From Candidatus Hermodarchaeota archaeon (GTDB taxonomy: Archaea; Asgardarchaeota; Heimdallarchaeia; Hodarchaeales; Hodarchaeaceae), in NCBI GenBank assembly GCA_048886185.1, contig JBHLKY010000001.1:1-32000 (forward strand): DNA of 32,000 bases, given 5' to 3'. Position numbers and translations under genes: made by a program. Positions 294-31,256 of this stretch are shown piece by piece; positions within the stretch are counted from its first letter, which is position 1, and every line of letters begins with the position of its first letter. The notes beneath the pieces are model-generated. The model saw nothing but the letters and a program-made list of their open reading frames with translations, was not told where the DNA came from and ran no database searches.

Positions 294-1247
294 TTAGAAA
301 GAAGTTAATAGAGTGGTCAAAATTATGCCCACAAATAGCCATAAGAATGCAAACGCCATGTAGATCGAAGCTAGTTTAAAGATTTTGAAAGTAAGTTCAT
401 TTGAAGGCTGTATGAGGTTAACCAAAGATCTGTAGACAATGAGAGTACTGAATCCTAGCAGTGGAAACATAGCGACAAAATGAATTTGGAGAAAAATTCC
501 TGTTAGTACAATTAGGAGAGCTGATAACAAAGCTGAAATAGTGATGACTTGAATAGTTTGAGATTTACTGCTAACAGCTGGCCACATGGGAACTTTTGCC
601 TTTTTATAACCATCCAAGTTTTTAGGTATCAAAGCAAGGGTAAGAATGTGTAAAGGAATCCAACACAAGACAAATAAACCCATTAGTAACGCAACAAGAT
701 CGATTGATCCAATGACTGCTGTCCTACCTGCAATGGCGGGAAGCCCCCCTGCAATACCACCAAAAATAATAGATACTCGTGTTCGTCTTTTTAACAGCAA
801 TGAATAAATTACGACATCAAAAAAGAATCCCAAAAAAACGATGATCATCGTAATAATATTGATGAATATCCCGATTGTTAAGATTCCAGCAGTAGTGAAG
901 AGAATACCATGTTTTAACACAGTCGCGGGAGGTACCCGACCACTTGGCAATGGACGATTCTTTGTTCTTTCCATGAGTGCGTCTATATCCCGATCCACAT
1001 ACATGTTGAGAAGTGTGGAACCAGAAACTGCAAAGAAAAGTCCTACAACTAGCCATATAAAGTGTAGTAGAACGAATCCTACATTCCAAGCACTAATAAG
1101 ATAAGAAAATATCGCTGTATAGAGAAGAAGAAAAGTTTGTTTGCTCTTAATCAACTCACCATAGGTGGAAAAGGAGAAAGGGGGGTAAGATGAGGGTGTT
1201 ATATGCTTATATTCTTGAGGAGATTTAGGAATTCCCATTTCATTCAC
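294..1247 (-). CDS. ctaB: Protoheme IX farnesyltransferase (heme O synthase, UbiA family), paralog 1
   Basis: NMYVDRDIDALMERTKNRPLPSGR motif, LKRRT, GGIAGGLP, WIPLH...YKKAKVPM; polytopic membrane protein. Confidence 0.92.
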   Translation of the reverse strand: MNEMGIPKSPQEYKHITPSSYPPFSFSTYGELIKSKQTFLLLYTAIFSYLISAWNVGFVLLHFIWLVVGLFFAVSGSTLLNMYVDRDIDALMERTKNRPLPSGRVPPATVLKHGILFTTAGILTIGIFINIITMIIVFLGFFFDVVIYSLLLKRRTRVSIIFGGIAGGLPAIAGRTAVIGSIDLVALLMGLFVLCWIPLHILTLALIPKNLDGYKKAKVPMWPAVSSKSQTIQVITISALLSALLIVLTGIFLQIHFVAMFPLLGFSTLIVYRSLVNLIQPSNELTFKIFKLASIYMAFAFLWLFVGIILTTLLTSF

Positions 1248-1497: not shown

Positions 1498-2169
1498 CTA
1501 TTTAAACAGAGGATTTTCAGGTCTCCACTTTTCTGGGAGTAGAATACCAAGAACGAACAATACTCCAACAATTACCAGTAGAAGTGGTAATACATCAAAA
1601 ATCTGATCTGCAGTTAATATTGGGGCGTCAAGCTTCAAAAAAGCTAGTAAAACTCCCCCAAATGATATCAAGAACCCACCAATTGAGTAGAAAATACTCG
1701 TTATTTCTGTTTTTTTAGTGAAAGCGGTATATAGAGGAATGCCAACTATCGAAAGTCCACTAGGAATATGAAGCCCCATTAATACAGGGGTAGAAAAAGC
1801 ATCAAAACCCGAAAGAAGCTCAAGTCTGACAACTGCTAAAGCGGCGACCATAACAACTGTATAGACGGTATAAAGTAATCCGTATGGTTTATCATCCCAA
1901 ACAACAAAGAAAAGCCCGATTGCTAAGCAGGCAGGTATGAAAGCTGCTACAACTGGAACTAATGGTTCTTCTAGTATAGTAAAACCATTTATTATGATTA
2001 AAACACCAGATACGAACAAAACAAGAAAACTAATGGCCCATGCTAAATGATAGACTTTTCTATTCTTCAGAAAGTCTAGTAATAGGAAAACGGCCATAAC
2101 TAGTGCTACCAAACCAGTAATCAAGAGTAATGTGATTGGAATTAGGTTTGCTGCAATATCATCTAACAT
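1498..2169 (-). CDS. Hypothetical membrane protein, about 7 TM
   Basis: About 7 hydrophobic segments; start moved from 2202 to the ATG at 2169, which follows a GGAGGT SD; two His (KVYH, GLHIP). Confidence 0.8.
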   Translation of the reverse strand: MLDDIAANLIPITLLLITGLVALVMAVFLLLDFLKNRKVYHLAWAISFLVLFVSGVLIIINGFTILEEPLVPVVAAFIPACLAIGLFFVVWDDKPYGLLYTVYTVVMVAALAVVRLELLSGFDAFSTPVLMGLHIPSGLSIVGIPLYTAFTKKTEITSIFYSIGGFLISFGGVLLAFLKLDAPILTADQIFDVLPLLLVIVGVLFVLGILLPEKWRPENPLFK

Positions 2170-2264
2170 TGTTAAACCTCCAAAAAACAAGTGAACATAC
2201 AATCTGCTTTCTATGTGAAAATTAATAATATTTGGTGAGTTTTTTTCGTAATAAGTACCCTCAA

Positions 2265-2688: not shown

Positions 2689-3156
2689 ATGAGTGATGAG
2701 TTAGAAGAAGAATGTTCGGCTCTCTTAGCGATTAAAATTCTTGGTCGGAAGTGGATTCCATGGATACTGTGCGAGCTCTTGTCTCAAAGAGAAGCATACT
2801 TCTCGGATCTCCTGAAAAGAATTGAGGGAAATTATGGAGAAAAAATATCTGCAAGAGTTCTCTCAGAATCATTAAGTACCCTTGAAGAGAACGATTTACT
2901 TGAACGTATTGTGGAAAGCGAAACAATGCCTATTAGAGTGAAATATTCTTTAACAGAGAAAGGAGCTGACCTCGAGATAATCCTAGGAGCTTTAAAAGGA
3001 TGGGGAATCAAATGGGGCACTATTCGACAAAAAAAATGTAAGTCTTTCAGCTGTATTCACAATTGTGTTCCAATGATAAATATTAATAAAGCCAGAGAGC
3101 TATTGGAATTAGGTTTACCAATACCCTCCTCTGAAGAAGCTAAGGATACTGGTTAA
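2689..3156 (+). CDS. HxlR/DUF24 family winged-helix transcriptional regulator
   Basis: CSALLAIKILGRKW, FSDLLKRIEG, ISARVLSESLSTLEE, PIRVKYSLTEKG; extra C-terminal CxxxxCxxxC. Confidence 0.92.
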   Translation: MSDELEEECSALLAIKILGRKWIPWILCELLSQREAYFSDLLKRIEGNYGEKISARVLSESLSTLEENDLLERIVESETMPIRVKYSLTEKGADLEIILGALKGWGIKWGTIRQKKCKSFSCIHNCVPMININKARELLELGLPIPSSEEAKDTG

Positions 3157-3607: not shown

Positions 3608-5005
3608 TCAATCCTGCCAATTGAGGAGGCGTTGCTCTCCTTCTAGTTCACGTATTTCAGTAATGTCTTGGGTTACTTCTAATGTTCCTTGGTAATTACC
3701 ATCCTGATCTCTAACTGCAAAATAGCGAATGAGGATAGTTTTTTCTTGTAATTTTATCCAAAATTCTGCAGCATCTTTCTTTCCTTTCTTGAATGCTTCA
3801 AGGATTCGATTAACAATATGAACACTTTTTCTCGGATGACAGTTCTGAACCTTCCTCCCGATTACACCAGGACTTCGAGGAAATATACGATCTGGAGTAT
3901 CCGAATAAAAACGAACAGTATCTGTCTCATCGATAAAGGATATTTCAATTGGTAGATGAGTTAATATTAAGGTGAGCTGTGATTGATTTAAATTCCCTGT
4001 TTTTAAGTTTAATACTTCTTTCTCTTCACTACTTTTCTTTTTATGAATCATTTCGGGGGTGATTGGTTTCCACTCTGTTCCTGGTGTTATCCACGCGTAT
4101 CCTATCTCTTCCTCTCCATTTCTAACTTCTGCCCATTCTTTGGTACCTAATAAATCAAGTGCAGTTGGAAACAGAATTGTTTCTTCTTTGAAAATTAAAT
4201 CTTCAATTTGTTTTGTCACTTCTTTAATATTTAGCTCTTTTTCTTTGAATAATCCTCTTATTTCATCATGTTTTGCCCACATAACCTGGGAGGGTCCAGT
4301 GAATCCTGCTTCCTCTAGTCTTGGAAAGAGTTGATTCTCTAATCTGGTATAATGGATTTCGATTTGTCTAAGTTTATCCACTAACTCTGGATTAAATGAT
4401 TGACGGATCTCTGTGATCAATGATCTCGCCATTTTATTCTCTTCCATGTAAGTGTGAACAGGGTGCCCTGGAATAGCTTCAGGACGGTCATGTTGATCCA
4501 AGGAATGCTCAAAAATCCCGACATGGAGATCACATAACTTTGTGATTTGATCTGCTGTCAACGATCCTTCATCAATCAGGGTTTGTTCCATTGATGCAAT
4601 TTCAGTCGCATCAACATCGCCTAAAAGCTCACGAAAACGCTTTTGAAGATCCTTTAGATCTCCGCCTTCATGTAACTCTAATATTAAGGCTTTTAACATT
4701 TCTTGTCTTCGTGCGTGTTCACTCTGCCAACCACTTTTGCCTTCATCAGCTAGTTCAATTATTACTTTTTTTGAGACATTCTTTTCAATACTTGCAGCTA
4801 AGACTTGAAGAAGTTCTGGTAATGCTGTTCCACTCATTTGAGAGACATCAGTTAGCGTAGCCTTTCTCCCAATAGTCTTGCGGAGGAAAGGGTTATTTAA
4901 ACGCCGTAACTTAGGATCTAAACTTATTAAAGTGTTGATAATGAACGGGAATTCTTCAATCAAATCTTTAATTTTAGTTGATTCCGTTAGTTTTATTTGT
5001 GACAT
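3608..5005 (-). CDS. DUF438 protein (DUF1858 + DUF438 + hemerythrin-like + PAS_10)
   Basis: LCDLH, GHPVHTYMEEN, HYTRLENQLFP, MWAKHDEIR, IGRKVQNCHP; ATG at 5005 after GAGGATGA (track start 5023 is TTG). Confidence 0.9.
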   Translation of the reverse strand: MSQIKLTESTKIKDLIEEFPFIINTLISLDPKLRRLNNPFLRKTIGRKATLTDVSQMSGTALPELLQVLAASIEKNVSKKVIIELADEGKSGWQSEHARRQEMLKALILELHEGGDLKDLQKRFRELLGDVDATEIASMEQTLIDEGSLTADQITKLCDLHVGIFEHSLDQHDRPEAIPGHPVHTYMEENKMARSLITEIRQSFNPELVDKLRQIEIHYTRLENQLFPRLEEAGFTGPSQVMWAKHDEIRGLFKEKELNIKEVTKQIEDLIFKEETILFPTALDLLGTKEWAEVRNGEEEIGYAWITPGTEWKPITPEMIHKKKSSEEKEVLNLKTGNLNQSQLTLILTHLPIEISFIDETDTVRFYSDTPDRIFPRSPGVIGRKVQNCHPRKSVHIVNRILEAFKKGKKDAAEFWIKLQEKTILIRYFAVRDQDGNYQGTLEVTQDITEIRELEGEQRLLNWQD

Positions 5006-5170
5006 ATACTCATCCTCTTTCAAGATATCTCAAAAACCATCTTGTACCTATTTCGAAATTCCCTCATTTCTGATGTTACCTAGCTAGATTGTGTGTTTAA
5101 AATATTAGTTTCTTATGGATGTACAAATTCATTTAACATTGATTTTTAGTTTATATAACTAATTCATTTC

Positions 5171-9042: not shown

Positions 9043-9070
9043 AATTTTTCACCTCTGATTCAAAAGATTT

Positions 9071-9754: not shown

Positions 9755-9784
9755 TTGATAATCACCCTAAGATATTCTGATTTC

Positions 9785-15031: not shown

Positions 15032-16678
15032 TTAGGATCGTCTTTTTCTGATGAAATAAGAGGAAACACCTAAAATACCTAATACAGCTAATAATCCAAT
15101 TGCAGGAGCGGTTTCTGTGGTTGTTATTGTTTCGATAACTGTTTTCTCCACTGTTTTCTCAACAGTGTGGTCAACAGTGTGGTCTACGGTGTGGTCTACG
15201 GTGTGGTCTACGGTGACGTCTACTGTGACTGTTGGGTTGATCGCACTAGCAATAGCAGCATTTGCTTCAACGATGGCTTCATCTAGTTTGACTAATGCCA
15301 AGGATAGCTGTTGTTCAGCAGTAGGGGACAATGGGCTGTGGAAAGTACCTTCGTTTGGGACTAAGGCTTCTGCTTCCTCAATCAATGCTTTTGCGTTTGC
15401 GAGATTGTTGGTATCAACACCAATTGTACTTTTGGCTTCATCATATTTGGCTGTGGCTTCTGCTAATTTGGTATCGTACAATGCTTTCGCATCAGTCAAA
15501 TTACCGAAGTTTGCCATATATGTTTGCATGGTTGCCCAGACTGTAGCGTTGTCGTTTCCATGGCATAAACCACACACTTCTCCTGGGTCACCTCCAGAGA
15601 ATCTCCAATTGTGATTGAGGGTAGAAAATGATCCAGGTGTTTCGACAGTCCCGTTAGGGAAATATTTGGTAGGTGTATATGTGTAACCATGGCAATCGGT
15701 ACAAGCTAACATTGTGTGGTTACTTGGGTCTGTGAAGTATGCTGTGCTAGTGTTAAGGCTGATATCGTGGCAAATTCCACAAAGTTCGTTAACTGTTGCA
15801 GCTCGTAATTGACTTCCACCTGGTCCAAATTCCTGGCCAGTATACGGATTAGTATATGGACTCATTGCATGTGATTCGTCACCAGCGTTAACAGAAGCAT
15901 CGTGAGGATCGTGGCATGTGACGCATGTGATAGTGTACCAATCACTGGAATTCAGCTCTGCGACATTCATGTAAGTACTCTGTCCAATATAGTGCTCCAG
16001 ATTAGTCAGTGAATTTATATCACCGCTAGCAAGCAAACCACTAAGAGAGTTATAGTGTTTACTTTGGATGTAGCCCATCCATTGCATTCCACCAGGCGTG
16101 TGACAGCTTCGACATGTCATATAACTGAGGCTTTTTACTCCTGGTTCTGGATGACATGCTGCACAAGAAACACCAATATCCCAGATGTTGCTAGTCATAT
16201 TTTCATAAGCTGGGTTTGTTGGATCTCCAGTAACGTTATACCACCTTGTAGTCATGCAACATTGTTGCCCTGAAGCATTAAATAGCTCACTATAGTTCCA
16301 ATAATTTATAGGGTTGGCAAGGGTATTTGGGGTTCGCCAATAATGTGTTGAATTGTAGGACACTTTGCTACCATTTTTTGCATTATCAAGTGGATCATAT
16401 TCTCCAACTATTTGAGCATGCCATGTTTCGTTCCAACTAGCAATTATATCGTCATGACAACCAGAGCCTGAGCAATCTTCAGGATGCCAAGGGTCTCCAA
16501 TAGCAGCGTGCCAAGAATCGTCAATTGCTTCAAATCTATATTTTGGATCTAAGATTGTTACACCTAGACCTGCAGCAGCAGCTGTTCCGAGGAAGACGAT
16601 GGCAAACCAATAGAATAAGACAACCCTGCGGCCACTCCAATTGCTTTGACGAACTAGTATTTCGTCTTGTTCATTCAT
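15032..16678 (-). CDS. Surface-anchored multiheme c-type cytochrome (c554-like N-terminus, NrfA/HAO/OcwA-like helical C-terminus)
   Basis: Six CxxCH, one CX4CH, one CCM; signal peptide; helical bundle ending GTFHSP; Thr/Val stalk, TM and RKRRS tail; about 12 N-x-S/T sequons. Confidence 0.92.
   Translation of the reverse strand: MNEQDEILVRQSNWSGRRVVLFYWFAIVFLGTAAAAGLGVTILDPKYRFEAIDDSWHAAIGDPWHPEDCSGSGCHDDIIASWNETWHAQIVGEYDPLDNAKNGSKVSYNSTHYWRTPNTLANPINYWNYSELFNASGQQCCMTTRWYNVTGDPTNPAYENMTSNIWDIGVSCAACHPEPGVKSLSYMTCRSCHTPGGMQWMGYIQSKHYNSLSGLLASGDINSLTNLEHYIGQSTYMNVAELNSSDWYTITCVTCHDPHDASVNAGDESHAMSPYTNPYTGQEFGPGGSQLRAATVNELCGICHDISLNTSTAYFTDPSNHTMLACTDCHGYTYTPTKYFPNGTVETPGSFSTLNHNWRFSGGDPGEVCGLCHGNDNATVWATMQTYMANFGNLTDAKALYDTKLAEATAKYDEAKSTIGVDTNNLANAKALIEEAEALVPNEGTFHSPLSPTAEQQLSLALVKLDEAIVEANAAIASAINPTVTVDVTVDHTVDHTVDHTVDHTVEKTVEKTVIETITTTETAPAIGLLAVLGILGVSSYFIRKRRS
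15138..15233 (-). repeat. In-frame 12-bp tandem repeat, about 8 imperfect units, encoding TVTV-DVTV-(DHTV)4-(EKTV)2
   Basis: Plus-strand units ACTGTTTTCTC(C/A) x2, AC(A/G)GTGTGGTC(A/T) x4, ACGGTGACGTCT, ACTGTGACTGTT. Confidence 0.95.
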
Positions 16679-18866: not shown

Positions 18867-19634
18867 TTGCACTTCTCTATGGAAATGAAGAAAAATAAAA
18901 ACATAAGGTTGGTTATAAATTTGAGTCGGTTTATTAAAATTCTCTATGCATTGACTGGTGCTGCAGCTGCCATTGGTATTGTTAGTGCTATAGGTAGTAC
19001 CTGTGTTTCCCTTGATCCTTATTGGCAAAAAGCCACGTTCGCTATTGCAGGGGAATACTCAGAAGTTTGGTTTGTCACTTATTTTGTGACATGGTTTGCC
19101 GCGATTGTTTGGGGCATACTGTTCTGGGCGTTGCGCGCCCGTAAATCATGGTTCTATCCTCTTGCTATTATAAATAGTATTCTGGGTTTTATTGGCAGAG
19201 GTGTTCCTGCCATTCTCATGTCTATTGGCTTTTTCTCGAAACCTCGGACAGGATTGCTGTTCACTCCTTCGTGGGCTTCAGCTTTACTTAATTTGGCTAT
19301 TCTTATTATTTTGCTAATTCCTGCTTTCAAACAACAAGTTAAAAACCATCTGGAAAGCGTTGGTACTTCTTCTGGTGGTAGTGTTGGTTCTCAGGTGTCT
19401 GAATTTGCTTCAGTGCTCTTTGGTTTTGGGATTGTAATGCTTCTTCAGCCATTAATTATGCCTACTCACATTATTGATGGGGTGAATATTGCCTCTTCTT
19501 ATGGGTATCTTTTAGCCTCTGGACTTCTTCAGTTTTATGGCGGGTTGTCCTGTCTTGTACTGGGAATTCTTACACGAATTGCAGGTCGCTTACTAACTAT
19601 TTATTCCTCTAAACCTTTACCTTTAGAAGCTTAA
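18867..19634 (+). CDS. Hypothetical polytopic membrane protein
   Basis: About 6-7 TM; first gene of the plus-strand run; true start may be the ATG at 18882. Confidence 0.75.
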   Translation: MHFSMEMKKNKNIRLVINLSRFIKILYALTGAAAAIGIVSAIGSTCVSLDPYWQKATFAIAGEYSEVWFVTYFVTWFAAIVWGILFWALRARKSWFYPLAIINSILGFIGRGVPAILMSIGFFSKPRTGLLFTPSWASALLNLAILIILLIPAFKQQVKNHLESVGTSSGGSVGSQVSEFASVLFGFGIVMLLQPLIMPTHIIDGVNIASSYGYLLASGLLQFYGGLSCLVLGILTRIAGRLLTIYSSKPLPLEA

Positions 19635-19685: not shown

Positions 19686-21284
19686 GTGGTGACTAAAATG
19701 ACAACTGTACAAAAAACAGAAGGAATAATTCCATGGTTAAAGTATAAAATTAATTATGGGTTGACTTTTAAGGGTATGATCACATTTACAATTGTTTGGG
19801 AGTTCTGTATCATACTCTTCTTATCCACTTTTTCCGAACCCATCAAGCTCGTCTTAGGACAACCATTATTTCCCATAACATTAGATCCTGATCCCATTGA
19901 GAAAGCGGGTCGTCTTGTCATGATTTATCATTCGATTGCGGTGCCGTTCATTGCTACTTGTACCTATTTTGTCATGGAAATTATGGATGTAAGAGAGAAA
20001 TTAAAATCCCGTATCAAATTCCCATTATTTTTTGGGAGTATTTTAGCTTCCGCAAATGCTGTATTATTTACGTATATCTTTCCAGAGGCGTGGATCCTCC
20101 ACGGCTTGTACTTGGTTGGATTGTCTCTCTGTTTTTATGCTGGTATCCTACTACTGATTGGGGTTTTTCCAACAAAATCTTTTCCACCTCGTGATTCAGA
20201 AAATAGTCGTAATATTTTATTAGAACAAGTTGCATTAACATTACTTGCTATCTGTATCTTAATAAGCGTTGTTCTTGGAGCATCGGTTGGAGCTTTTTTT
20301 GGTCAAGAAGGTTTATCAGTAATGCTAGCAGAATATTTCCTCAGACATGATATGTATCCTTATGAGGTTGCAGAGCTCTTTATCGATGCCATTAAAGCCC
20401 ATCTGCATGTCATGCTCGCGTTAATCGACGTAATTATTCTGTTAGTGGTCTATCGGTACACTGTGACTAACCAAAAAGGTAGATGGCATCTCATATCTAT
20501 GATTCTTGTTATTCCAGGAATGCTCATCCTATCATTAGGTGCTTGGTTTGTAACTCTCAACTCTGTAGTTGATTGGCCATTTGATATGCATTATCTAATC
20601 TATGTGGGATCTGCGATTCTCGTAACTGTGGGTGTCATACTCGCTTTCACTGGGTGGAGTAAAACAAGCAAAGAAATCCTTGGTGATGCTTATGAATCAG
20701 CTTCTTGGTTCACTCGTACCAAAGCTGTTTTCAAAGCTCCAGTCAAATTTGCTCTGTACTTCCAATTTATCTGGGTAAATTTTGTCATGACTTTTGGTGG
20801 GATATTCCTTGCGCTTAGTCTTCGAGGATCTACTGATCCAGAAGGTGCCTCACCTCTAACAAACGTTTTAGGACTAGTTTCGTTTCGAGATGGCCCACTA
20901 GCGATTGAAACTACAGTAGCACGTGGTCATTGGCACGTTTTAGCTACTTTATCTGCAATTATTTTACTCCTCCTCTGTATTGACATACTGGACATACAAG
21001 GTTTAGCACGAAAGGTAATGGCTTGGTTGTTGTTTGCTGGAAGTATTTTGGCATTTGGATTTGCATTAATTTATTTGTATTTTCCACACCTTGACCAGAC
21101 TTGGGCAACAAATTTAACTAAATATGCAGATGTACAGGAATTCTGGGATGCTACGGCATTTTGGTTACCTCTTGTCATTGATCTTGGAATAATGCTGTTT
21201 GTCATTGCATTAGTCATCTTTTGTTTCTATCAGTTAATCGAAATTATCAAAGGAAGAAAAGATGTTATTAATTTTCCAGAATAA
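19686..21284 (+). CDS. 12-TM heme-copper-oxidase-fold homologue with non-canonical His set
   Basis: 12 hydrophobic helices in three 4-helix units; His in TM2 (H82), TM6 (H239xH241), TM10 (GHWH, H415/H417), TM4 (H139), TM8 (H302). ORF is certain; family is by eye. Confidence 0.6.
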   Translation: MVTKMTTVQKTEGIIPWLKYKINYGLTFKGMITFTIVWEFCIILFLSTFSEPIKLVLGQPLFPITLDPDPIEKAGRLVMIYHSIAVPFIATCTYFVMEIMDVREKLKSRIKFPLFFGSILASANAVLFTYIFPEAWILHGLYLVGLSLCFYAGILLLIGVFPTKSFPPRDSENSRNILLEQVALTLLAICILISVVLGASVGAFFGQEGLSVMLAEYFLRHDMYPYEVAELFIDAIKAHLHVMLALIDVIILLVVYRYTVTNQKGRWHLISMILVIPGMLILSLGAWFVTLNSVVDWPFDMHYLIYVGSAILVTVGVILAFTGWSKTSKEILGDAYESASWFTRTKAVFKAPVKFALYFQFIWVNFVMTFGGIFLALSLRGSTDPEGASPLTNVLGLVSFRDGPLAIETTVARGHWHVLATLSAIILLLLCIDILDIQGLARKVMAWLLFAGSILAFGFALIYLYFPHLDQTWATNLTKYADVQEFWDATAFWLPLVIDLGIMLFVIALVIFCFYQLIEIIKGRKDVINFPE

Positions 21285-21331
21285 GTAACTCTACTTATTC
21301 AACATCTTTTCAATCGTGGAATGACTCCTAC

Positions 21332-22276
21332 ATGAATGAAGCGGATTCCCCTTCGCAGGAATATGAACAACTAGTACCCCCATTATATCCCCCGCTCTCT
21401 ATTTCTACTTATGGTGAACTGATTAAAAGCAAGCAAACATTTCTTCTACTCTATACAGCAATATTTGCTTATTTTATTAGTGCTTGGCAGGCAGGTTTCG
21501 ACTTGTGGGCTTTTCTTTGGTTCACTGTAAGTCTTTTCTTTGCAATTTCTGGGTCAACACTCCTCAATATGTATGTTGATCGTGATATTGATGCTTTAAT
21601 GGAAAGAACAAAGCAACGTCCTTTGCCTAGTAGGCGTATTCCTCCCTCAACTGTATTAAAACATGGAATTCTTTTCACAGTAGCAGGTACAGTTGTAGTA
21701 GGTATATTTACTAATATTATTACGATGATCGTCGTTTTTTTGGGATTCTTCTTTGATGTAGTGGTTTACTCATTGTTGTTAAAACGACGAACTAGAGTAT
21801 CAATTATTTTTGGTGGTATTGCTGGAGGACTCCCAGCTATTGCTGGCCGAACTGCAGTTCTGGGCTATATTGATCTTCCTGCAATATTGATGGGATTCTT
21901 TGTCTTATGTTGGATTCCCTTACATATACTCACGCTTGCTCTGATTCCAAAAAATCTAGAAGGGTATAAGAATGCGAGGGTTCCCATGTGGCCAGTGGTC
22001 AGTAGCCAAACCCAGACAATACGTGTTGTAACATCATCAGCAATTTTAAGTGCTTCCATTGTTGTCTTGACTGGAATAAGCTTACAAATAAATTTTCTCG
22101 TTCTTTTCCCATTAATTTTGTTCTGTGCCTTCATCCTCTTTCAAGCTTTTGCTAATCTTAAACAACCATCTCAACCAAGAACATTTAAGATTTTTAAGTT
22201 AGCATCAATCTTTATGGCTTTTGCATTTCTCTGGTTATATGTAGGAGTGGTTTTAACTTCGTTTTTACCATTATAA
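21332..22276 (+). CDS. ctaB: Protoheme IX farnesyltransferase (heme O synthase), paralog 2
   Basis: Same motifs as 294..1247; roughly three-quarters identical by eye. Confidence 0.92.
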   Translation: MNEADSPSQEYEQLVPPLYPPLSISTYGELIKSKQTFLLLYTAIFAYFISAWQAGFDLWAFLWFTVSLFFAISGSTLLNMYVDRDIDALMERTKQRPLPSRRIPPSTVLKHGILFTVAGTVVVGIFTNIITMIVVFLGFFFDVVVYSLLLKRRTRVSIIFGGIAGGLPAIAGRTAVLGYIDLPAILMGFFVLCWIPLHILTLALIPKNLEGYKNARVPMWPVVSSQTQTIRVVTSSAILSASIVVLTGISLQINFLVLFPLILFCAFILFQAFANLKQPSQPRTFKIFKLASIFMAFAFLWLYVGVVLTSFLPL

Positions 22277-22359: not shown

Positions 22360-23586
22360 ATGAATTCAAATGAATATTCGGATACAATGAGGCAGGTCAT
22401 TATCCTCGGGATTATGGTATTAGTAACTATTTTAGCTCCAGCACTTCTCCACACAAATCAATTAGAGTTCATTGTGCTTCGATTCGGTGTTGATCTATTA
22501 GAGGCTTCTTATTTTGATACAGCCCTTTATGCCTCATACTTGGTTGGTGGAATATTAACTGCAATCTTGTCAAATCAGGTTGGAAAGCGAAAAATTTTCA
22601 TTTTAATTGGCAGTTTTGGTTCTTCAGTGTTCTTTCTTGTTATGACATTAACCCTGAATTATCCATTATTGTTGGTATTTCGATTCCTGCAAGGGAGTTT
22701 TACAGTGCTTTGTTGGCAGACTTTGATGACAGTTGTATTGGATTTGTCAACACCCCAAAATCGAGGGAAAAATATGGGAATTTTTGGAATGTTCTTAGCT
22801 TTAGCAATGGGGGCTGGTCCTGTATTAGGAGGCATATTTGCAGGGATTGGAGTTTTTGTCCCGTATTATGTTGCTACAATGTTGAGTCTATTTGTCTTTG
22901 TATTCTCACTTGTTCAATTGAAAGAACCAAAAAACCTTGTATCGAAACCCTCTGTCGTAGAGAATGTTAAGATTGTCTTTCAGAAACCCCGTCTCGTTAT
23001 TCCTGGCATATTCAACTTTGTTGATCGATTTCATATTGGTTTCATCTTAACCATACTTCCTCTCTTCTTACCCCTTGTGCTAGGTGTTGATGAAGAACTC
23101 AGAGGGATGGTTCTAGGTCTTTTTGCATTACCATTCATTATTTTACAGTACCCTGTGGGTAAATGGTCCGACCGAGTGGGTCGATACCGGCCTCTTATTT
23201 TTGGAAGTGTTAGTGTGGGGATAATGTTGACTATCATAGGATTTGTGGGGACTTTCGGGCTTTTTCCTTTAATTATCGGATTTATTATACTAGGAATTGG
23301 GAATGGATTTACAGGTCCACCTGCAATGGCCTTAGTAGGTGATATTGTTGAAGCTGACGATAATCCTACCAGCATGGGTTTTTTTAACCTATTGGGAAAT
23401 ATTGGAATAATAATGGGTCCATTAGTTGGTGGATTTCTGGTTCTTCCAGAAACAGAGTTATCTTTTGTTATTGCTTTTGTTGTTGCGGGTTTTATTGAAT
23501 TTATATCCCTCGCTGGAGTCATCTTGATAATTTTTTTTGTATTCAAGGAAAATCCTTTGATAACCAAACCTTTGAAGGAAAAGTAA
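22360..23586 (+). CDS. MFS transporter (DHA1-like)
   Basis: About 12 TM; motif A LSNQVGKRK and WSDRVGRYR; RFLQG; GPVLGG. Confidence 0.92.
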   Translation: MNSNEYSDTMRQVIILGIMVLVTILAPALLHTNQLEFIVLRFGVDLLEASYFDTALYASYLVGGILTAILSNQVGKRKIFILIGSFGSSVFFLVMTLTLNYPLLLVFRFLQGSFTVLCWQTLMTVVLDLSTPQNRGKNMGIFGMFLALAMGAGPVLGGIFAGIGVFVPYYVATMLSLFVFVFSLVQLKEPKNLVSKPSVVENVKIVFQKPRLVIPGIFNFVDRFHIGFILTILPLFLPLVLGVDEELRGMVLGLFALPFIILQYPVGKWSDRVGRYRPLIFGSVSVGIMLTIIGFVGTFGLFPLIIGFIILGIGNGFTGPPAMALVGDIVEADDNPTSMGFFNLLGNIGIIMGPLVGGFLVLPETELSFVIAFVVAGFIEFISLAGVILIIFFVFKENPLITKPLKEK

Positions 23587-23888: not shown

Positions 23889-24569
23889 TTGGGAATACAA
23901 GAAGAAAGTGGTCAATATTTATCTACTAGAGACAAAATTCTTCAATTCTTATTGCTGAATCGCGCATCCAACAATGCTAATACAATAAAAGAGATTGCAG
24001 ATGAGTTAGATATTAGCATAAACGCAACCAGACAATATCTAATTGTGTTGGAAAAAGAAGGATTTGTAACCAAAACTCAGAAGAAGGGGGAAAGTGGGCG
24101 TCCAGCGATGGAATATACCATCACTGAAGATGCTTTGAGTGTTTTTCCTAAAAATTATGCTGATTTCTCTGTAAAGTTGATCAATGAAATTAAACAGCGT
24201 ATTGGGGTTACAGAGACTGACAACATCCTAAGAGAAGTTGGAAAGCGGATCGCTGATGAAGTACGAGAGGAAGTTGAGGCAGAAATGAGTCCAGATAAAG
24301 ATTTAGATCCTCTACGAAACAAACTGGAAGCAATATCCAGAGTTTATATGAAGTATGGTAAATATCCGGAACTCATTGAGGACGATGATTCATATGCCCT
24401 AAAGAACTTAAACTGTTTAATCTATGATATTGCAAAAGCAGATCCATTAGTTTGTACTGTTGATGAAACTATTGTTACCGAGCTTGTAGGAGAAAAAGCA
24501 ATAAAAGAAAAGTGTTTGAGACAAGGCGATGAGTGTTGTCTCTATAGAATAAAGAAAAAGAAACCTTAG
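23889..24569 (+). CDS. SufR-like HTH regulator with Fe-S-type Cys motif, paralog 1
   Basis: HTH, GRPAMEY, FPKNY, NC-X12-C-x2-DE...C...GDECC; TTG start. Confidence 0.85.
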   Translation: MGIQEESGQYLSTRDKILQFLLLNRASNNANTIKEIADELDISINATRQYLIVLEKEGFVTKTQKKGESGRPAMEYTITEDALSVFPKNYADFSVKLINEIKQRIGVTETDNILREVGKRIADEVREEVEAEMSPDKDLDPLRNKLEAISRVYMKYGKYPELIEDDDSYALKNLNCLIYDIAKADPLVCTVDETIVTELVGEKAIKEKCLRQGDECCLYRIKKKKP

Positions 24570-24886
24570 TTTTTTGTTATTTCTTATGGCGTGAAATTTC
24601 CGAGCTTCAGTTATTTAAAGTTTTTTTGTCTTATTCTCTTTTTTAAATGAATTTTATCTGTTTTTAGTGTAAATTCTTCTTCTTTACTTACTCAATTGAG
24701 CTAAAGTGAGAAAAATTTTTCATCTTTCTTTAAGAAAAAAATGTAAAAAATGTAAAAAGATATATTTATTAATTAAATTGAATTAATTATGATACAGATA
24801 AAATCTTTCACAAAATCAACCCTACAATTTGAAATTCGATTTTATCTGAAGATGGCGCTTTGTGTGCTCTGTATGTGGATGTAAAG

Positions 24887-25849
24887 ATGAAAACCATTAG
24901 AAGGAAAATTAAAATATTTCTCTTTGTAACATTTTTTAGTTTAAGTAGTTTAACAGTTCTGAATGCACTAGGAAAAGTCTCTGCTGATCAGGTAGGCTTT
25001 ATAGCACCGAAAATTACCTTTCAAATCGATCTGAATGATGGACAAATTGCATCTTTCTGGTCCAAAATCAATTCGTATCAAGACATCACCGAATTTGGAG
25101 GAAGTGGTTTTGTGAAATTCGCGAATAATGGAACTCACCTGTTTGCTCTGCTAGTAAGCTCAAGTGATAATGTATGGATTTCAGTTGAATTTGAGCCAGA
25201 TTCCTCTTTGTGTATGAAGAATTTAAATGATGGTTGGTCTTTTTACATTAATAAGGATGAACAGACAGTTTTAGCTAAAGATGTTAAGTTCAGGGGTACT
25301 GTCATTCCAACAGATGATGCGAAAAATGATCTATCTATTGAAAGTATATTTTCAGAGGGTTTGGTCTATATTGAGACAATTCGATCTTTTGATACTTCAG
25401 ACTTAAATGGATATGATATTACTTTTCATAACGCTAGCACTAATTTTCTTAAGTTTGCGTCTGATAGGAATCATTTTGGTAATCATGAAATTTACTATCT
25501 CTATGTTTATATTCCTGCTGATCAACCTAGTAATGAAACAAGTGGTAGTGAAACAATAGAACCCACTGATCCCTATAATACCGAAACAACTGAAACAAGT
25601 GAGGAAATTATCGTCATTCCCACCGATATTCCTGATATTCCAATTCCAGAGGGAGTTGACCTAAATCAGGTGAAGTTTCTATTACTAGGTATCACCCCAT
25701 TTGGCATCTTTGGCTTTGTAAGTATTCATTTGATCCGTCGAGTTTTCTACAGTCCTATAAGTCACGATCACGGTAGGATAGTTTCAAGTTCGTGGAAAGC
25801 TCCTACATTTATCGAAAGATTCAAGGACACCTTTCTTTCTAAAAAATAG
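24887..25849 (+). CDS. Extracellular DOMON-like heme b-binding protein with C-terminal TM anchor
   Basis: Signal peptide; DLNDG..W, CMKNLNDGW (candidate Met ligand), ETIRSFDTSD..YDI, NHFGNH (candidate His ligand); Pro/Thr/Glu linker, TM. Confidence 0.7.
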   Translation: MKTIRRKIKIFLFVTFFSLSSLTVLNALGKVSADQVGFIAPKITFQIDLNDGQIASFWSKINSYQDITEFGGSGFVKFANNGTHLFALLVSSSDNVWISVEFEPDSSLCMKNLNDGWSFYINKDEQTVLAKDVKFRGTVIPTDDAKNDLSIESIFSEGLVYIETIRSFDTSDLNGYDITFHNASTNFLKFASDRNHFGNHEIYYLYVYIPADQPSNETSGSETIEPTDPYNTETTETSEEIIVIPTDIPDIPIPEGVDLNQVKFLLLGITPFGIFGFVSIHLIRRVFYSPISHDHGRIVSSSWKAPTFIERFKDTFLSKK

Positions 25850-25883
25850 GAGATTACACTCTTTTTTTCTTTTAAATAAATCG

Positions 25884-26609
25884 TTGGTAGCAAAAATGAC
25901 AACAGCATACATAAAGGATAATAAAAAAATAGAATCAGCGGATATCAGTGAGGACATTACCGTTGTAAGATATAATAATCTTCAGAGGATTCATCATTGG
26001 ATTCATGTTTTTATCATGATCTTCTTCTTCTTTACTGGATTCGAGTTATTTATTAAAGTGTATTTCGTTGGAGATTATTTCCTAACACGATCTCTTCATT
26101 TCATTTTAGGGATTTTCACTGGGTTTTGGGATATTATCTTTTTCGGTGCAATCCTAATTGGATATGGAAAAATCAATGAAATCATTCCTTATCCTAGAGA
26201 TTTCCTTGATATTGTCATAATTTTCCTTTGTGCAATAAAAATTCTTCCCGATGAGAAGTATCCTGAGTATGATTTTTACGTTAGAGAGAAACAGAAATAT
26301 GTTATGAAATATCACCCCCTTCAAAAGCTTCTAACAGTAAGTAATATTCTTATGATTTTTCTGATGGGAGTTACAGGTATTGTTCTTGCAGAGGAACTCG
26401 TTCCTGGATCTACGGGAATATTAAGTATTATAGGATCATTGGCATTTCCTTTTCAAATGTTTAAAATCGATCTTCGGTTCATCCACTTTGGTATCTATCT
26501 CTACTTTCTCTTTACTACATTAATTCACTTTTATTTTGCACTAATCCCCCAAAATCGACACCGTTTAAGGGGTATGGTGACTGGTAAAGAGAAAATTCCA
26601 ATTAATTAA
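25884..26609 (+). CDS. Di-heme cytochrome b, FdnI/HyaC type
   Basis: RYNNLQRIHHWIH, RSLHF, YHPLQK, and two His 14 residues apart in the last TM (FIHF...LIHF); ATG alternative at 25896. Confidence 0.88.
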   Translation: MVAKMTTAYIKDNKKIESADISEDITVVRYNNLQRIHHWIHVFIMIFFFFTGFELFIKVYFVGDYFLTRSLHFILGIFTGFWDIIFFGAILIGYGKINEIIPYPRDFLDIVIIFLCAIKILPDEKYPEYDFYVREKQKYVMKYHPLQKLLTVSNILMIFLMGVTGIVLAEELVPGSTGILSIIGSLAFPFQMFKIDLRFIHFGIYLYFLFTTLIHFYFALIPQNRHRLRGMVTGKEKIPIN

Positions 26610-26899
26610 ACTAGTTATTTCTTATATCAGTTCGAAACCATTTGATCCTATATTTCTCTTTTTTCTTCTTTCTGAAGTTTGTCGCTGAAATTATTCCCAA
26701 TTCGGTCATAAAATCCTTTTTTTTTTAATTACTGTTATTGGTGATTTTAAATAAATTATTAAAACTAAATTTCATTGCTTTTATAATTTAAGTAATTAAA
26801 AAGTTAAAATAATTTTAAAAGATTTTAATCCGTTTAAAACGAAGTTACATTAATAAATAACTTTTAATACACCTTTAGAATATTCTCTACACGATAAAT

Positions 26900-27577
26900 G
26901 TGCATTCAATCCACAAAAATGGGTTTTTTTCAAAACAGAACTCTAACTTCATGTTTTCTTTCTTCTTTGCTCTTACTTTTCTGTGGATGGTACTGTCTTT
27001 CTCAATATTCAGTTTAATCTATAACTTGCTAATTTTCCCTTTTACCATAATTCATGAATTAAGTCATTGTTTCGCGCTTGGTTGTTTTTTTCCAGGTAAA
27101 GAAGCTCAAATTGAATTCCATTTGTTTGATAATGGAATTACTTATGCTAATGTAAAATTCGAGTCCCTTCCTCTCTGTTTAGGATCTGTGATGTCTCTTA
27201 TTATTGGTCCGTTATCTGTTTTGACACTATGCATACTAGGGATCATTATGCTAAAACAGTATCCTTCATCAAATCTTAGCAAGACTACAAGTAATTTCTT
27301 AAAGTTTGTATTATTGTGTGATTTTCCAAATCTATTTCCAATACATCCTCCTATGATTAACGCAGTTACTGATGGATATGCAGCAAGTGTGTATCTATTC
27401 CAAATGGGTGTTGTCCCTTTCATTTCAACAGAGTTATCTATAATACTCTATATGATTGCTGCTATAATTTCTTTCACTTCGTTCTTCTACCTTGGAACCT
27501 CAGTCTATTTTCTTTTACAGCACTTCAAAGTATTGGTCCTGAAAGATGAACGAAACTTTCATCCCCAATTAGCTTAA
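26900..27577 (+). CDS. M50-family (site-2-like) intramembrane zinc metalloprotease
   Basis: IIHELSH (HExxH) in a TM; NLFPIHPPMINAVTDG (NxxP...DG). Confidence 0.75.
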   Translation: MHSIHKNGFFSKQNSNFMFSFFFALTFLWMVLSFSIFSLIYNLLIFPFTIIHELSHCFALGCFFPGKEAQIEFHLFDNGITYANVKFESLPLCLGSVMSLIIGPLSVLTLCILGIIMLKQYPSSNLSKTTSNFLKFVLLCDFPNLFPIHPPMINAVTDGYAASVYLFQMGVVPFISTELSIILYMIAAIISFTSFFYLGTSVYFLLQHFKVLVLKDERNFHPQLA

Positions 27578-27588
27578 ACTGAAAATTC

Positions 27589-28287
27589 TCATACTTTAGC
27601 TTTCTTTAGTTTATTTATTCTATAAACACAAAGCATGTCTCCCTCGGATAAACACTGGACTTTATCAGCTTTTTTCCCCACTAGTTCAGTAACTAGAGTT
27701 TCATCAACAATACATGCTAAAGGATGATTACGGACAATATCATAAATTAAACAATTGCGATTTGTTATTGTAAATGAATCTTTAGTTTCTTCAATTTCAG
27801 GAAAACTGCCATAATCTTGGAAAACTTCTGCAACTGCATTAATTCTGTCTTTCAAATTATCAGAATTCGTACCACTTTCTTTTAAGGTTGAGTTAAGTTT
27901 TCTTTTCATCTCTTCAGCTTTTTCTTTACCCATTTCCGTTAGAAGATGTCGAGCTTCTTCCTCTCCAAAATTCTTTAAGATACGGTTTAGCAGTCGAATA
28001 GAAAAATCTGCATAAGATTTAGGAAATTTGGTTAGAGCAGCTTGGGCTAAGAAATAAGTCATCGCTGGACGACCTGTTTTCCCCTTCTTTTTCTTACGAA
28101 TTACGAGTTTATCTTTCTCTAGTTCAATCAGATATTGGCGTATCGCATTAGGAGATAAATCAAAAGTCTCCGCCATCTCTTTTATTGAACATCCCTGAGA
28201 TTCATCTTGAATGTTACTATTTACAAGTAAATAGCTTAGGATTTCTAATCGTGTTGATGAAAGATGTTCACTAGCTACCTGAGGCAT
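27589..28287 (-). CDS. SufR-like HTH regulator, paralog 2
   Basis: Collinear with 23889..24569 (GRPAMTY, FPKSYADFS, NC-X12-C-x2-DE, C...GDMLC); start moved to ATG 28287 (MPQV). Confidence 0.85.
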   Translation of the reverse strand: MPQVASEHLSSTRLEILSYLLVNSNIQDESQGCSIKEMAETFDLSPNAIRQYLIELEKDKLVIRKKKKGKTGRPAMTYFLAQAALTKFPKSYADFSIRLLNRILKNFGEEEARHLLTEMGKEKAEEMKRKLNSTLKESGTNSDNLKDRINAVAEVFQDYGSFPEIEETKDSFTITNRNCLIYDIVRNHPLACIVDETLVTELVGKKADKVQCLSEGDMLCVYRINKLKKAKV

Positions 28288-28571
28288 ATTTGCATCGCCT
28301 AATAGAATATTATATCGAACAAATATAATCAAAGAAGTATGTATTTTTTAACTTTTTTAAATGTTTTTACATTAAATTATAATAAACTTTTTAAGAAGAG
28401 ATTTCATTCTAAAAAATGACTAGAATAATGTAGAATGTAATTTATTATTATCAATGTGGATTTTTAAGCTTTAAAACTAATACGATTGTTTGAAAGGTCA
28501 AGCATTAAATACATACTTTTTCTGATACCATTGATCCTCACCTATTTTATGCAAAGAAGTATAAACTGAAT

Positions 28572-29786
28572 GTGATTCCATTGCACGTTGTTATCATTGG
28601 ATCTGGTCATGCAGGTATAACTGCCGCTATCACTCTTCGTCAGAATGCTGAGGATATTGAAATATCTATGATAACGGAAGATAGCTATCCTCATTATCCC
28701 CGTCCATCTGTCTATAAAATCATTTCAGGCAAAAAACCTGAAGAGATACTCCGTTTTCCCAAAGATTGGTATGATAAAAATGAAATATCTCTTTCTCTCA
28801 ATAGTCGTGTAACTAAAATTAATGGAGCAAAAAAGAAGATAAAAATTAAGAATGGAGAAATTATTTCTTTCGATAAACTCCTGATTACCACTGGCTCCGA
28901 ACCATTCATCCCTCCTATACCAGGACTCCTAGATAGTCCTTTTTGCTGTTTACGAGATATAGTTGATGCCCTTACAATCCGTGAACGTGCATTAAGTAGT
29001 TCAACTGGGCAAGCTACAATTTTAGGGGGTGGTTTACTTTCTGTTGAACTAGCAAAAACGCTTTCTGACATTGGAATCATGCCCACAATTATCGATAGAT
29101 CACCTTACTTACTTAGGAAACAACTTGACGAAGAAGGGGGTCGTTTCTTTAATGAAGTGTTAGATAAAATGTTCGACATCAAATTCTTCCATCAAACTTC
29201 TTGTCAAAAGATCAAATACGCTAATAAAAATTTTTTAATTGAAATTAAGGATGCCTCAGGATTACGCACTCATACATGTGACTTTTTACTCAACGCTACA
29301 GGGATTCAAAATGATAACGATCTTCCCCATAGAGCAGGTATCAAAATAGGAAATTATGCTATTATTGTAGATCCTTTTATGCGAACCAATGTTCCAGATA
29401 TTTTTGCAGCTGGAGATGCTGTAGACATTGAATCTTTTCCAGGATCTAAATTTGGTATCATTCCTACTGCTATTGATCAAGCAAAGATTGCTGCTATAAA
29501 TATACTTGGAAGTGAGGTTCCGTACCCAGGGACAATGCCCTGGACTACTCTGAAAGTGGCTGGGATTAGTTTAACATCTTTAGGAGATGTTTCAACTGGC
29601 CCTAGAATTAATGAAGAGGGTGTGATAATTGATCGTGTTCAGGGTATATATCAAAAACTCTTTTTTAAAGATAACACTTTACAAGGAGCCATTCTTATTG
29701 GTACAAAGAGAAACTTATCCGAGCTTAGGAATCTAACTATCCGAAATGCTTCTTTAAGTGAAGTTAAGAATGAGCTTGATATCTGA
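28572..29786 (+). CDS. NAD(P)/FAD-dependent oxidoreductase, NADH:rubredoxin oxidoreductase/NirB-N type
   Basis: IIGSGHAG, LLITTGS, GGGLLSVE, TNVPDIFAAGD, TTLKVAGI. Confidence 0.88.
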   Translation: MIPLHVVIIGSGHAGITAAITLRQNAEDIEISMITEDSYPHYPRPSVYKIISGKKPEEILRFPKDWYDKNEISLSLNSRVTKINGAKKKIKIKNGEIISFDKLLITTGSEPFIPPIPGLLDSPFCCLRDIVDALTIRERALSSSTGQATILGGGLLSVELAKTLSDIGIMPTIIDRSPYLLRKQLDEEGGRFFNEVLDKMFDIKFFHQTSCQKIKYANKNFLIEIKDASGLRTHTCDFLLNATGIQNDNDLPHRAGIKIGNYAIIVDPFMRTNVPDIFAAGDAVDIESFPGSKFGIIPTAIDQAKIAAINILGSEVPYPGTMPWTTLKVAGISLTSLGDVSTGPRINEEGVIIDRVQGIYQKLFFKDNTLQGAILIGTKRNLSELRNLTIRNASLSEVKNELDI

Positions 29787-29791
29787 ATTTC

Positions 29792-30262
29792 TTACTTCCT
29801 AAATAGCATTTTAATTTTTTCCCACAGTCTTCTTCTTGGTTTCATTTTAGGAGAAATATCACCCATTGCTTGGCTCCGTACAACATTAAGGCTTAATAAA
29901 TCCTGCTCAAAATCCTCGAAAGTATCTTCTTTAATAATAGTTCCTATTCTTGAGCCATATTTTTCTAAAAAAATTGCCATCGCCTGATTTAAACGATCCT
30001 CTACCATTTTTGTTCCAAGAGGATTGGCAAAGACCATGATTATTTCTTTCTCTCTGTCAATCTTGAAGTCTAACTTAATGTCGTTGAATATTACAGATTT
30101 TAATTCTTCTTGTCCAAAAGATTCCTCGGCAAAAGAATACATCGCTGCTAAAAATCCAGTTTGAAGTGCATGATCAGGATGTAATTTGCAATAATCTCCT
30201 CCATAACACTTGGCAAAAAGAGGAATTCCAGAAGTCTGAAGAATAAATACATCATCGGCCAT
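29792..30262 (-). CDS. Longin-like domain protein (Asgard type)
   Basis: VFILQTSGIPLF...LQTGFLAAMYSFAEESFG..LKSVIF..LDF pattern. Confidence 0.65.
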   Translation of the reverse strand: MADDVFILQTSGIPLFAKCYGGDYCKLHPDHALQTGFLAAMYSFAEESFGQEELKSVIFNDIKLDFKIDREKEIIMVFANPLGTKMVEDRLNQAMAIFLEKYGSRIGTIIKEDTFEDFEQDLLSLNVVRSQAMGDISPKMKPRRRLWEKIKMLFRK

Positions 30263-30484
30263 TTCATCATTTCCTCTAAGAGAATTTTATGCTGTCATAT
30301 CATTTTTTAACGATATTTTTGATGATAACAATCCTTTTCTTTTTAACTTTTTCAATTTTTGCAATCAGAGGAATTAGATAAACCAATTGAAGATATCTTA
30401 ATGAAGTTATTGAGATTAAGAACCCACGCCTGATTATGAAGGAATTCTGTTTCTAGATTTCCGTCGCTTACTTCATTTCTCTTC

Positions 30485-30958: not shown

Positions 30959-31256
30959 TTTAATTCCTCATTGTAAATAAACATTTATTAGGTTGTTTCT
31001 TCTTCTTGTTGTTTCACGAAATTTGATTCTTAATGTTTATTACCTTTTAATTTTCGTAATTTATCTAAATATAGAAAAAATTCTGGTAATTAGGTGAAAA
31101 ATGCACAATTAATACGAATTGGCCTCTTCTTCCTCTAAAACTAAATTTGAAGTAATTTATTATATTATTAAATAACAATAGTTAACTTTTTATTCACGAG
31201 GTATTTAACATCAAATAGGCAATAAAATCTCATAAAATAATTCGTTGTGATTAAAA

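Follow-up and report, generated by a model that had tools for sequence, protein, structure and literature searches.

An undescribed membrane protein family of predicted haem-copper oxidase fold and its linked haem O synthase gene in archaea and bacteria

The first 32,000 nucleotides of contig JBHLKY010000001.1 from a Candidatus Hermodarchaeota archaeon (assembly GCA_048886185.1), hereafter the window, are the opening 32 kb of a 316-kb contig belonging to a genome of 4.84 Mb that is 96% complete. They carry the gene for a protein of 12 transmembrane helices (TM1 to TM12), named HCOL here, and 47 bp past its stop codon begins ctaB1, a gene for a haem O synthase. A second copy of the latter, ctaB2, is also present in the window and its product is 74% identical to that of ctaB1. 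The three features on which the argument rests are as follows.

19686..21284, plus strand: HCOL, 12-TM protein of haem-copper oxidoreductase (HCO) fold (open reading frame, AlphaFold model, conservation)
21332..22276, plus strand: ctaB1, haem O synthase of the HCOL-linked lineage (TIGR01473, adjacency, tree)
294..1247, minus strand: ctaB2, second haem O synthase (TIGR01473 208.6 bits, just below the cut-off)

HCOL, its predicted fold and its histidines

An earlier, sequence-only reading of this DNA had described a 12-TM protein of 532 amino acids encoded 47 bp before ctaB, and had singled out seven histidines in it. The open reading frames and the structural model bear out the protein and its position, and all seven residues (H82, H139, H239, H241, H302, H415 and H417) are present; a correction to that reading is the second ctaB of the window. 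The stop-free reading frame at 19686-21284(+) yields 532 amino acids from a GTG codon. Given that an identical database protein has 528 amino acids, the ATG at 19698 is the probable start codon; the residue numbering of the 532-residue frame is nonetheless kept here. Besides the seven histidines, R76, Y81, Y130, E216, R220, R401, E408 and W416 are conserved. No Pfam or NCBIfam family, the COX1 and NnrS models included, was found for HCOL, its named database homologues all carry the label "hypothetical protein", and no description of the family was found in the literature; HCOL belongs to an undescribed family.

A model of HCOL built with AlphaFold2 from a 35-sequence alignment contains 12 long helices (mean predicted local distance difference test score 91, predicted template modelling score 0.91). 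When this model was searched against structural representatives, ten HCO and nitric oxide reductase (NOR) chains ranked on top. By VIA, the best match was CcoN (3mk7_A; Z 20.3, root-mean-square deviation 4.0 A, 417 aligned residues) and the second NorB (4xyd_A; Z 19.9, 405 aligned residues), with the other eight oxidase and NOR chains at Z 13.6-18.2 (A- and B-family oxidases 17-18, qNORs 13.6-15.5); the best match outside the HCO fold reached Z 12.1 and spanned just four helices. Of the 50 highest-ranking Foldseek matches, all except one were titled respiratory oxidase, NOR or supercomplex, with E values from 2e-3 and TM scores of about 0.5. The charges of the loops, as read from the sequence, obey the positive-inside rule with both termini inside (N-in/C-in), as in subunit I. 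For the predicted model, the subunit I fold proposed earlier is thus confirmed, and HCOL is predicted to share the fold, and probably the ancestry, of HCO subunit I.

Searches at the level of sequence gave less. PF00115 did not match HCOL at E <= 1, nor any of 10 distant relatives at E <= 0.1. The sole match in a sequence and profile search of the PDB, a weak one to the B subunit of an Mrp antiporter along one hydrophobic stretch, was judged to be driven by composition. The second and third four-helix repeat units of HCOL (u2-u3) align with each other by hhalign with a probability of 93.8% (E 1.7e-7); a suggestion that these internal repeats are an ancestral trait was rejected, as canonical COX1 gives 93.5% (c1-c3) against the 93.8% of HCOL. 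Neither was HCOL found to be a haem A synthase of the CtaA/Cox15 type, there being no match to PF02628.

The histidines lie in TM2 (H82), at the start of TM4 (H139), in TM6 (H239 and H241), at the start of TM8 (H302) and in TM10 (H415 and H417), and all seven are invariant in the 35-sequence alignment. Among 94 distinct homologues, drawn from Asgard archaea and numerous phyla of anaerobic bacteria and ranging down to approximately 30% identity, H139, H239, H241, H302, H415 and H417 are histidine in 94 of 94, and H82 in 93, with one alignment gap. Y130, E216, E408, W416 and several glycines were scored as invariant in this set (E216, E408 and Y130 at 99-100%), R76 and Y81 are 99% conserved, and conservation of 95% or more is seen at about 39 positions in a set that spans two domains of life and is approximately 30% identical overall. 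Since some of the 94 loci had been found with patterns containing H239, H241, H415 and H417 (H82, H139 and H302 lie outside them), 34 full-length representatives from a pattern-free control, a profile search of 1.84 billion proteins that returned 280 matches, were also inspected. H82, H239, H415 and H417 were kept in every one of these that covered them. H241 and H302 were lost jointly in four of the 34 (P0108, P0192, P0201 and P0206) and never singly, which suggests that they act as one functional unit and that the distal site has been rebuilt. H139 was lost in seven, of which P0120, P0134, P0139 and P0149 also lack Y130, R76, R220 and R401. The expectation that the histidines would recur in homologues has therefore held across two domains of life.

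Two profile-profile comparisons with COX1, one using the single protein of the same genome and the other 20 Asgard COX1 sequences, gave alignments that were colinear over 388-435 columns and statistically weak. In these, H82 falls on the haem ligand of TM2 (H94 in the COX1 of the same genome) and G-H415-W-H417-V on the G-H-F-H-L of helix X, with H415 and H417 on H404 and H406. By alignment, HCOL thus has the axial haem ligand set, with H82 and H417 in the positions of the two low-spin haem ligands (TM2 and second histidine of the TM10 HxH) and H415 in that of the proximal ligand of the high-spin haem (first histidine of the HxH). H302 falls, with low confidence, on the first histidine of the HH pair, and the TM6 region was not reliably aligned by hhalign. 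The CuB/FeB ligand set, consisting of a TM6 histidine and an adjacent pair at the end of TM7, is not found as such in HCOL: TM7 (266-289) contains no histidine and the whole sequence no HH. The position at +4 from H239 is taken by M243 and not tyrosine, no tyrosine is conserved in TM6 or TM7, and the glutamate that serves FeB in NORs at +4 of the TM6 histidine is likewise missing (the residue is M243 or A245), as is the histidine pair. By comparison, the TM2 histidine, the TM6 histidine, the +4 tyrosine, one histidine of the HH pair, one of helix X and the arginine pair are invariant in 21 Asgard COX1 sequences, and the other HH histidine, the other helix X histidine and the Mg-site histidine each vary in one sequence. 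A divergent Asgard COX1 (locus L138, G051:C135:4200-6600; PF00115, 163 bits), which adjoins a Cox-type ctaB, was observed to align with tyrosine in place of one CuB histidine (H315 position) and of the high-spin proximal histidine (H404 position).

The sequence-only reading had held that HCOL is without CuB/FeB ligands. The HH pair and the tyrosine are indeed absent, but the claim was too strong in that one TM6 histidine probably corresponds to the CuB histidine. As the four histidines that are always kept amount to the canonical pattern minus the HH pair, H239 would be the likeliest counterpart of the CuB/FeB histidine; conservation favours H239 and symmetry reasoning favours H241, and the possibility that repeat-to-repeat alignments slip by two residues limits the assignment within TM6. 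According to the u2-u3 alignment, the HxH of TM6 corresponds, repeat for repeat, to that of TM10, the motif which in oxidases ligates two different haems from opposite faces. Given the alignment of H302 with the first histidine of the HH pair, the distal metal site may be rebuilt and not absent.

The linked haem O synthase and the spread of the family

The product of ctaB1 scores 214.8 bits on TIGR01473, above the cut-off of 210.3, and at most 54 bits on other UbiA models. Seven UbiA proteins encoded beside HCOL outside the Heimdall group (five bacterial, one from a metagenome-assembled genome labelled Methanosarcinales and one from Thorarchaeota) score 204-226 bits; five of them exceed 210.3, and other prenyltransferase models reach at most 71 bits. 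Among 400 genomes of Asgard archaea, the phylum to which the window belongs, the HCOL profile was found in 61, COX1 in 24 and ctaB, counted at E <= 1e-30, in 72. In about 47 of the 61 genomes with HCOL, the coordinates show ctaB as the next gene downstream on the same strand, most exceptions being at contig ends. Approximately 60 of the 72 genomes with ctaB also encode HCOL, and ctaB without HCOL is limited to genomes with COX1, one small genus and one other genome. HCOL and COX1 occur together in 15 of the genomes and HCOL without COX1 in 46. The latter include the single-contig assemblies G067 (4.9 Mb), G065, G015 and G142, with loci from three of these four lying in records titled chromosome or complete genome, together with several further genomes that are 97-100% complete.

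A survey of all prokaryotes, with one genome per species, gave at least 579 loci, and the figures that follow are for the best 80 of them. An adjacent downstream ctaB is present in 61 of the 80 (18 of 22 archaeal and 43 of 58 bacterial loci); six more are cut by a contig end, and one has ctaB elsewhere in the locus. Besides Asgard archaea, the family is found in Chloroflexota (Anaerolineae), Aminicenantes, Symbiobacteriaceae, Calditrichota, Ignavibacteria and others, and a chromosome record of the Anaerolineaceae carries the module without COX1. In a quick maximum-likelihood tree of CtaB, midpoint-rooted and with the careful search unfinished, the HCOL-linked proteins, archaeal and bacterial alike, cluster in a single group (72 rows; approximate likelihood ratio test support 98) and the Cox-linked proteins a group apart (99); both ctaB copies of the window fall within the linked archaeal group. 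Linkage to ctaB in other genomes, which the earlier reading had proposed to look for, is thus general, and it holds in the absence of COX1.

Several observations on the distribution stand to one side of this. Some Asgard genomes have a second, more divergent HCOL paralogue (G247:C18:56499-57848, G236:C149:10644-11897, G045:C96 and G142:C1:642323-643702), in two of them at a distance of about 4 kb from the copy linked to ctaB. A contig labelled Methanosarcinales (L117, JAIWHF010000099.1) has the order HCOL-FGE-ctaB, with its ctaB sister to that of L086 on branches of approximately 0.03 each; since this module groups with Anaerolineales, the contig is probably a binning contaminant and not a source of methanogen genes. 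An atlas search gave, as leads only, unnamed neighbouring clusters from Chloroflexota, Thermoproteota and Nitrososphaerota, one of which had been labelled automatically as "cytochrome oxidase subunit I profile".

The genome from which the window derives also has conventional oxidases. The earlier statement that no coxA, coxB or ctaA gene occurs in the window is correct, but 24 kb downstream on the same contig (C1:44900-52000; L003 12903-19989) there is a canonical COX3-COX2-COX1-COX4 operon, with genes for a DOMON-domain protein and for subunits I and II of cytochrome bd. A haem A synthase (PF02628) was not found anywhere in this genome, so the haem of its normal oxidase is presumably haem O and/or haem B. 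Haem O could therefore serve the ordinary oxidase as well, and the notion of a synthase belonging to HCOL rests on the other genomes. With the linkage being general, the module occurring in genomes without COX1 and the linked CtaB proteins forming a separate group, the pairing of HCOL with its own haem O synthase is well supported by these genomic comparisons.

Other members of the module and neighbouring genes

The remaining features of the window that were placed on record are these.

18867..19634, plus strand: P0003-like membrane protein with one invariant histidine (H201), unknown family, 51 bp before HCOL
1498..2202, minus strand (probable start 2169): 7-TM accessory protein in which the histidine of an 'HIPSG' motif is invariant (recurrence, model)
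2689..3156, plus strand: HxlR-family regulator, divergent from the 7-TM/ctaB2 pair
3608..5023, minus strand: DUF1858-DUF438-hemerythrin-PAS_10 protein, loosely associated with HCOL
7433-12518 and 15032-16678, minus strand: Ccm system I cluster (CcmA, CcmB, CcmC-like, CcmE, 780-aa CcmF-like) and a 548-aa multihaem cytochrome c
22360..23586, plus strand: MFS transporter, downstream of ctaB1

The 7-TM family, of approximately 200-230 amino acids with its one invariant histidine, occurs at Asgard loci and, with weaker similarity, at bacterial ones. Its gene is mostly directly upstream of HCOL in Asgard loci and up- or downstream of the module in bacteria; in the present genome it is detached from HCOL and directly upstream of ctaB2. 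A confident model was obtained for the protein, but its assignment to a known family failed, as only generic 7-TM and GPCR-like matches at the level of unrelated helical bundles (Z about 14) were returned. When HCOL, the 7-TM protein and two haems were predicted as a complex, the score was 0.00, which speaks neither for nor against binding. Heimdall-like and Thor-like loci also have the P0003-like gene upstream of HCOL, and a relationship between its product and the 7-TM protein was rejected, the two families being unrelated in comparison.

In bacteria, a gene for an FGE-sulfatase-domain lipoprotein lies between HCOL and ctaB in 32 of the 43 linked loci among the best 80. Most of these proteins, judging from their N-termini, begin with a hydrophobic stretch resembling a signal peptide and ending in cysteine, as is typical of lipoproteins, and a fusion of HCOL to an FGE-sulfatase domain exists (P0084). 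The distant members P0149 and P0206 were observed to be fused to a C-terminal PD40/WD40-like beta-propeller, P0206 being without H241 and H302. No gene for a cupredoxin or cytochrome c subunit II was seen beside HCOL in the window or in eight individually inspected neighbourhoods.

In 34 archaeal loci the module is flanked by homologues of the HxlR regulator, with identities of 40-81%. Relatives of the hemerythrin type are found near HCOL in nine loci, four of them in Anaerolineae, and directly downstream of it in two Anaerolineae loci. The MFS gene is syntenic in close relatives alone, and its membership of the module is accordingly doubtful. The block of Ccm and cytochrome c genes is syntenic with two relatives and is confined to close relatives; it also includes a gene for a 743-aa GlcNAc-2-epimerase/GH76-like protein with a weak, sub-threshold match to the N-terminal domain of sulfocyanin. 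Further along, 23889-27577(+) encodes a wHTH-MetOD1 regulator, an unknown protein of 329 aa, a cytochrome b561 (Ni_hydr_CYTB) and an unknown protein of 225 aa, the first three of these genes being syntenic in a close relative; a second MetOD1 regulator is at 27589-28332(-), and 28572-31757 holds a NirB/NADH-oxidase-like FAD oxidoreductase (404 aa) and a peroxiredoxin. With its genes for an FAD oxidoreductase, a peroxiredoxin, a glyoxalase and a hemerythrin, the region has the character of an oxidative-stress locus.

Proposed function, alternatives and known systems

Taken together, these observations lead us to regard as reasonably probable that HCOL is an undescribed haem O-dependent oxidoreductase of the HCO superfamily whose distal site has been rebuilt and whose partners are new, probably acting in anaerobes to remove O2, NO or peroxide. 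The retained TM2 histidine and TM10 HxH would bind a low-spin and a high-spin haem as in oxidases, and at least one of these would be haem O supplied by the co-transcribed and co-evolving CtaB. The canonical CuB/FeB site of TM6 histidine, TM7 HH pair and tyrosine would be replaced by the TM6 HxH and the histidine at the start of TM8, either as two haems plus a rebuilt, histidine-based distal or metal site, or with a third haem held by the extra TM6 histidine in a pore that is empty in known oxidases. Candidate partners are the 7-TM protein, the lineage-specific membrane protein and, in bacteria, the extracytoplasmic FGE-sulfatase-domain lipoprotein. The enzyme may thus serve to clear a small oxidant (O2, NO or peroxide) at the membrane of mostly strict anaerobes, and the stress-related context was counted in favour of this, with HxlR regulators at 34 loci and hemerythrin-type proteins at nine. 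Cultured Hodarchaeales are strict anaerobes that probably use their oxidases for aerotolerance alone (10.1101/2025.02.26.640444), and a detoxifying role would fit with this. The earlier proposal of an enzyme using prenylated haem accordingly gains from the fold, the histidines and the dedicated synthase, while its premise of a missing CuB site survives only in part.

A number of points weigh against this proposal. The sequence homology with COX1 is weak, with no PF00115 match and an hhalign probability of 8-12% (E 0.0025-0.004), and the model of HCOL carries no cofactors. There is no evident electron-donor subunit. By the rule set out in 10.1101/2021.10.15.464467, the lack of a conserved TM6/TM7 tyrosine argues against four-electron reduction of O2, and NO or another two-electron substrate is thus at least as likely as O2. 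Twelve of the best 80 loci have no adjacent ctaB despite room to spare, some of these being second copies in genomes where the other copy has one. The Asgard CtaB scores lie near the TIGR01473 cut-off, which makes a variant substrate or prenyl chain possible. A more specific form of the proposal, in which the oxidase scaffold of HCOL carries three haems and no copper, with a new distal site at H241/H302, and HCOL acts, together with its dedicated haem O synthase, as a hitherto unrecognised terminal O2/NO reductase of strict anaerobes, is conceivable but doubtful.

The tight operon coupling of HCOL and ctaB could also mean that HCOL handles haem O without catalysing a redox reaction of its own, as a modifying enzyme in an alternative haem A-like route, as a chaperone or insertase, or as a transporter of the CtaB product. 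That the present genome has Cox and no CtaA (PF02628) would suit this idea, as would the common synteny of haem A synthases with haem O synthases in other systems (PMC12808453). It is nevertheless unlikely: the module is present in 46 Asgard genomes without Cox or any other known client for haem O or haem A, which leaves a pure maturation factor nothing to serve; HCOL is predicted to have the fold of subunit I, the client itself, and keeps the axial haem histidines; and there is no Pfam match to CtaA. Comparably improbable is a non-catalytic multihaem cytochrome whose two to three histidine-ligated haems would pass electrons on, either inside the membrane or to a partner outside it, for which the bacterial FGE-sulfatase-domain lipoprotein or the multihaem cytochromes encoded in the window would be the candidates. 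Such a relay is suggested by the equivalence of the TM6 HxH with the two-haem HxH of TM10 (probability 93.8%), by the extracytoplasmic lipoprotein and its fusion to HCOL, and by the Ccm system and multihaem cytochrome c of the window and its syntenic relatives; however, the Ccm and cytochrome c surroundings do not extend beyond close relatives, a farnesylated haem is not obviously needed for a relay, and the polar residues E216, E408, Y81 and Y130, being invariant, point to chemistry or the handling of protons. The want of a subunit II gene and the proximity of HxlR and PAS/hemerythrin genes might, in turn, be taken to indicate that HCOL senses gas or redox state, or that it is what is left of a degenerate oxidase, kept in a structural role. 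Among the 34 full-length representatives, however, no output domain and no signalling fusion was found, the only fusions seen being to FGE-sulfatase and PD40 propeller domains, and some 39 positions are conserved at 95% or above over two domains of life; this explanation is very improbable.

The pairing bears on how ctaB is used as a marker, haem O synthase being usually taken as a companion of haem-copper oxidases. Haem o biosynthesis has been classed with the O2-dependent enzymes and reported from all lineages of Heimdallarchaeia (10.1101/2024.07.04.601786), and the phylogeny of COX10 has been used to date aerotolerance near the eukaryotic ancestor (10.1101/2025.02.26.640444); both studies place haem O synthase in oxygen metabolism and name no other client (10.1101/2024.07.04.601786; 10.1101/2025.02.26.640444). 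With HCOL in about 60 of 72 ctaB genomes and COX1 in just 24 of 400, most Asgard ctaB genes probably serve a client other than Cox, and an uncharacterised one. Haem O synthase genes are thus not a safe marker of aerobic respiration. Should the three-haem reductase prove true, ctaB/COX10 would be no evidence of aerobic respiration, the oxygen physiology inferred for the archaeal relatives of eukaryotes would need revision, and such a reductase would be in use by strict anaerobes among the Asgard archaea and at least six bacterial phyla. HCOL constitutes a natural experiment on the oxidase scaffold without the canonical copper site, and it may be an O2- or NO-handling enzyme of abundant sediment and digester anaerobes (Anaerolineae, Aminicenantes). 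The module comprises two to four genes, and its heterologous expression would be feasible.

The recently proposed HCO families eNOR, sNOR, gNOR, nNOR and NOD resemble HCOL in combining an oxidase fold with an altered active site and no tyrosine cofactor, but HCOL fits none of them. They keep the three active-site histidines, with one swapped in gNOR, and eNOR, sNOR, nNOR and gNOR lie near the B family with second subunits of the CuA or cupredoxin type (10.1101/2021.10.15.464467); compared by way of that description, HCOL differs in having the TM7 pair wholly replaced and in its other partners. NnrS (PF05940), which crosses the membrane several times and reportedly binds haem and copper, had been offered as a parallel in the sequence-only reading, and this did not stand: there is no PF05940 match at E <= 1, NnrS is absent from the fold searches, and HCOL is not a relative by either approach.

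CcoN (3mk7_A) and NorB (4xyd_A, 3o0r_B) are, like HCOL, N-in/C-in proteins of 12 TM without extra helices, and in all of them the TM2 histidine and the HxH of TM10 are placed at matching depths, close to the outer face. In contrast to them, HCOL has no PF00115 match, no histidine pair at the end of TM7 and no cytochrome c subunit gene, and it is without both the TM7 tyrosine of cbb3 and the FeB glutamate of NOR at +4 of the TM6 histidine; in their stead it possesses the TM6 HxH and additional invariant histidines at the starts of TM4 and TM8. Haem B is the haem of the cbb3 oxidases and cNOR, which are not known to require CtaB; HCOL, in contrast, travels with CtaB. The A- and B-family oxidases (the COX1 of the same genome, C1:45387-46727, and PDB entries 1ehk and 1fft) have a fold like that of HCOL (Z 17-18). 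The HPxVY motif, HH pair, Mg-site histidine and arginine pair of COX1, invariant or nearly so in the 21 Asgard sequences, have no counterpart in HCOL, and no COX2, COX3 or COX4 genes adjoin it; what the A- and B-family oxidases and HCOL have in common, besides the fold, is their dependence on a haem O synthase gene.

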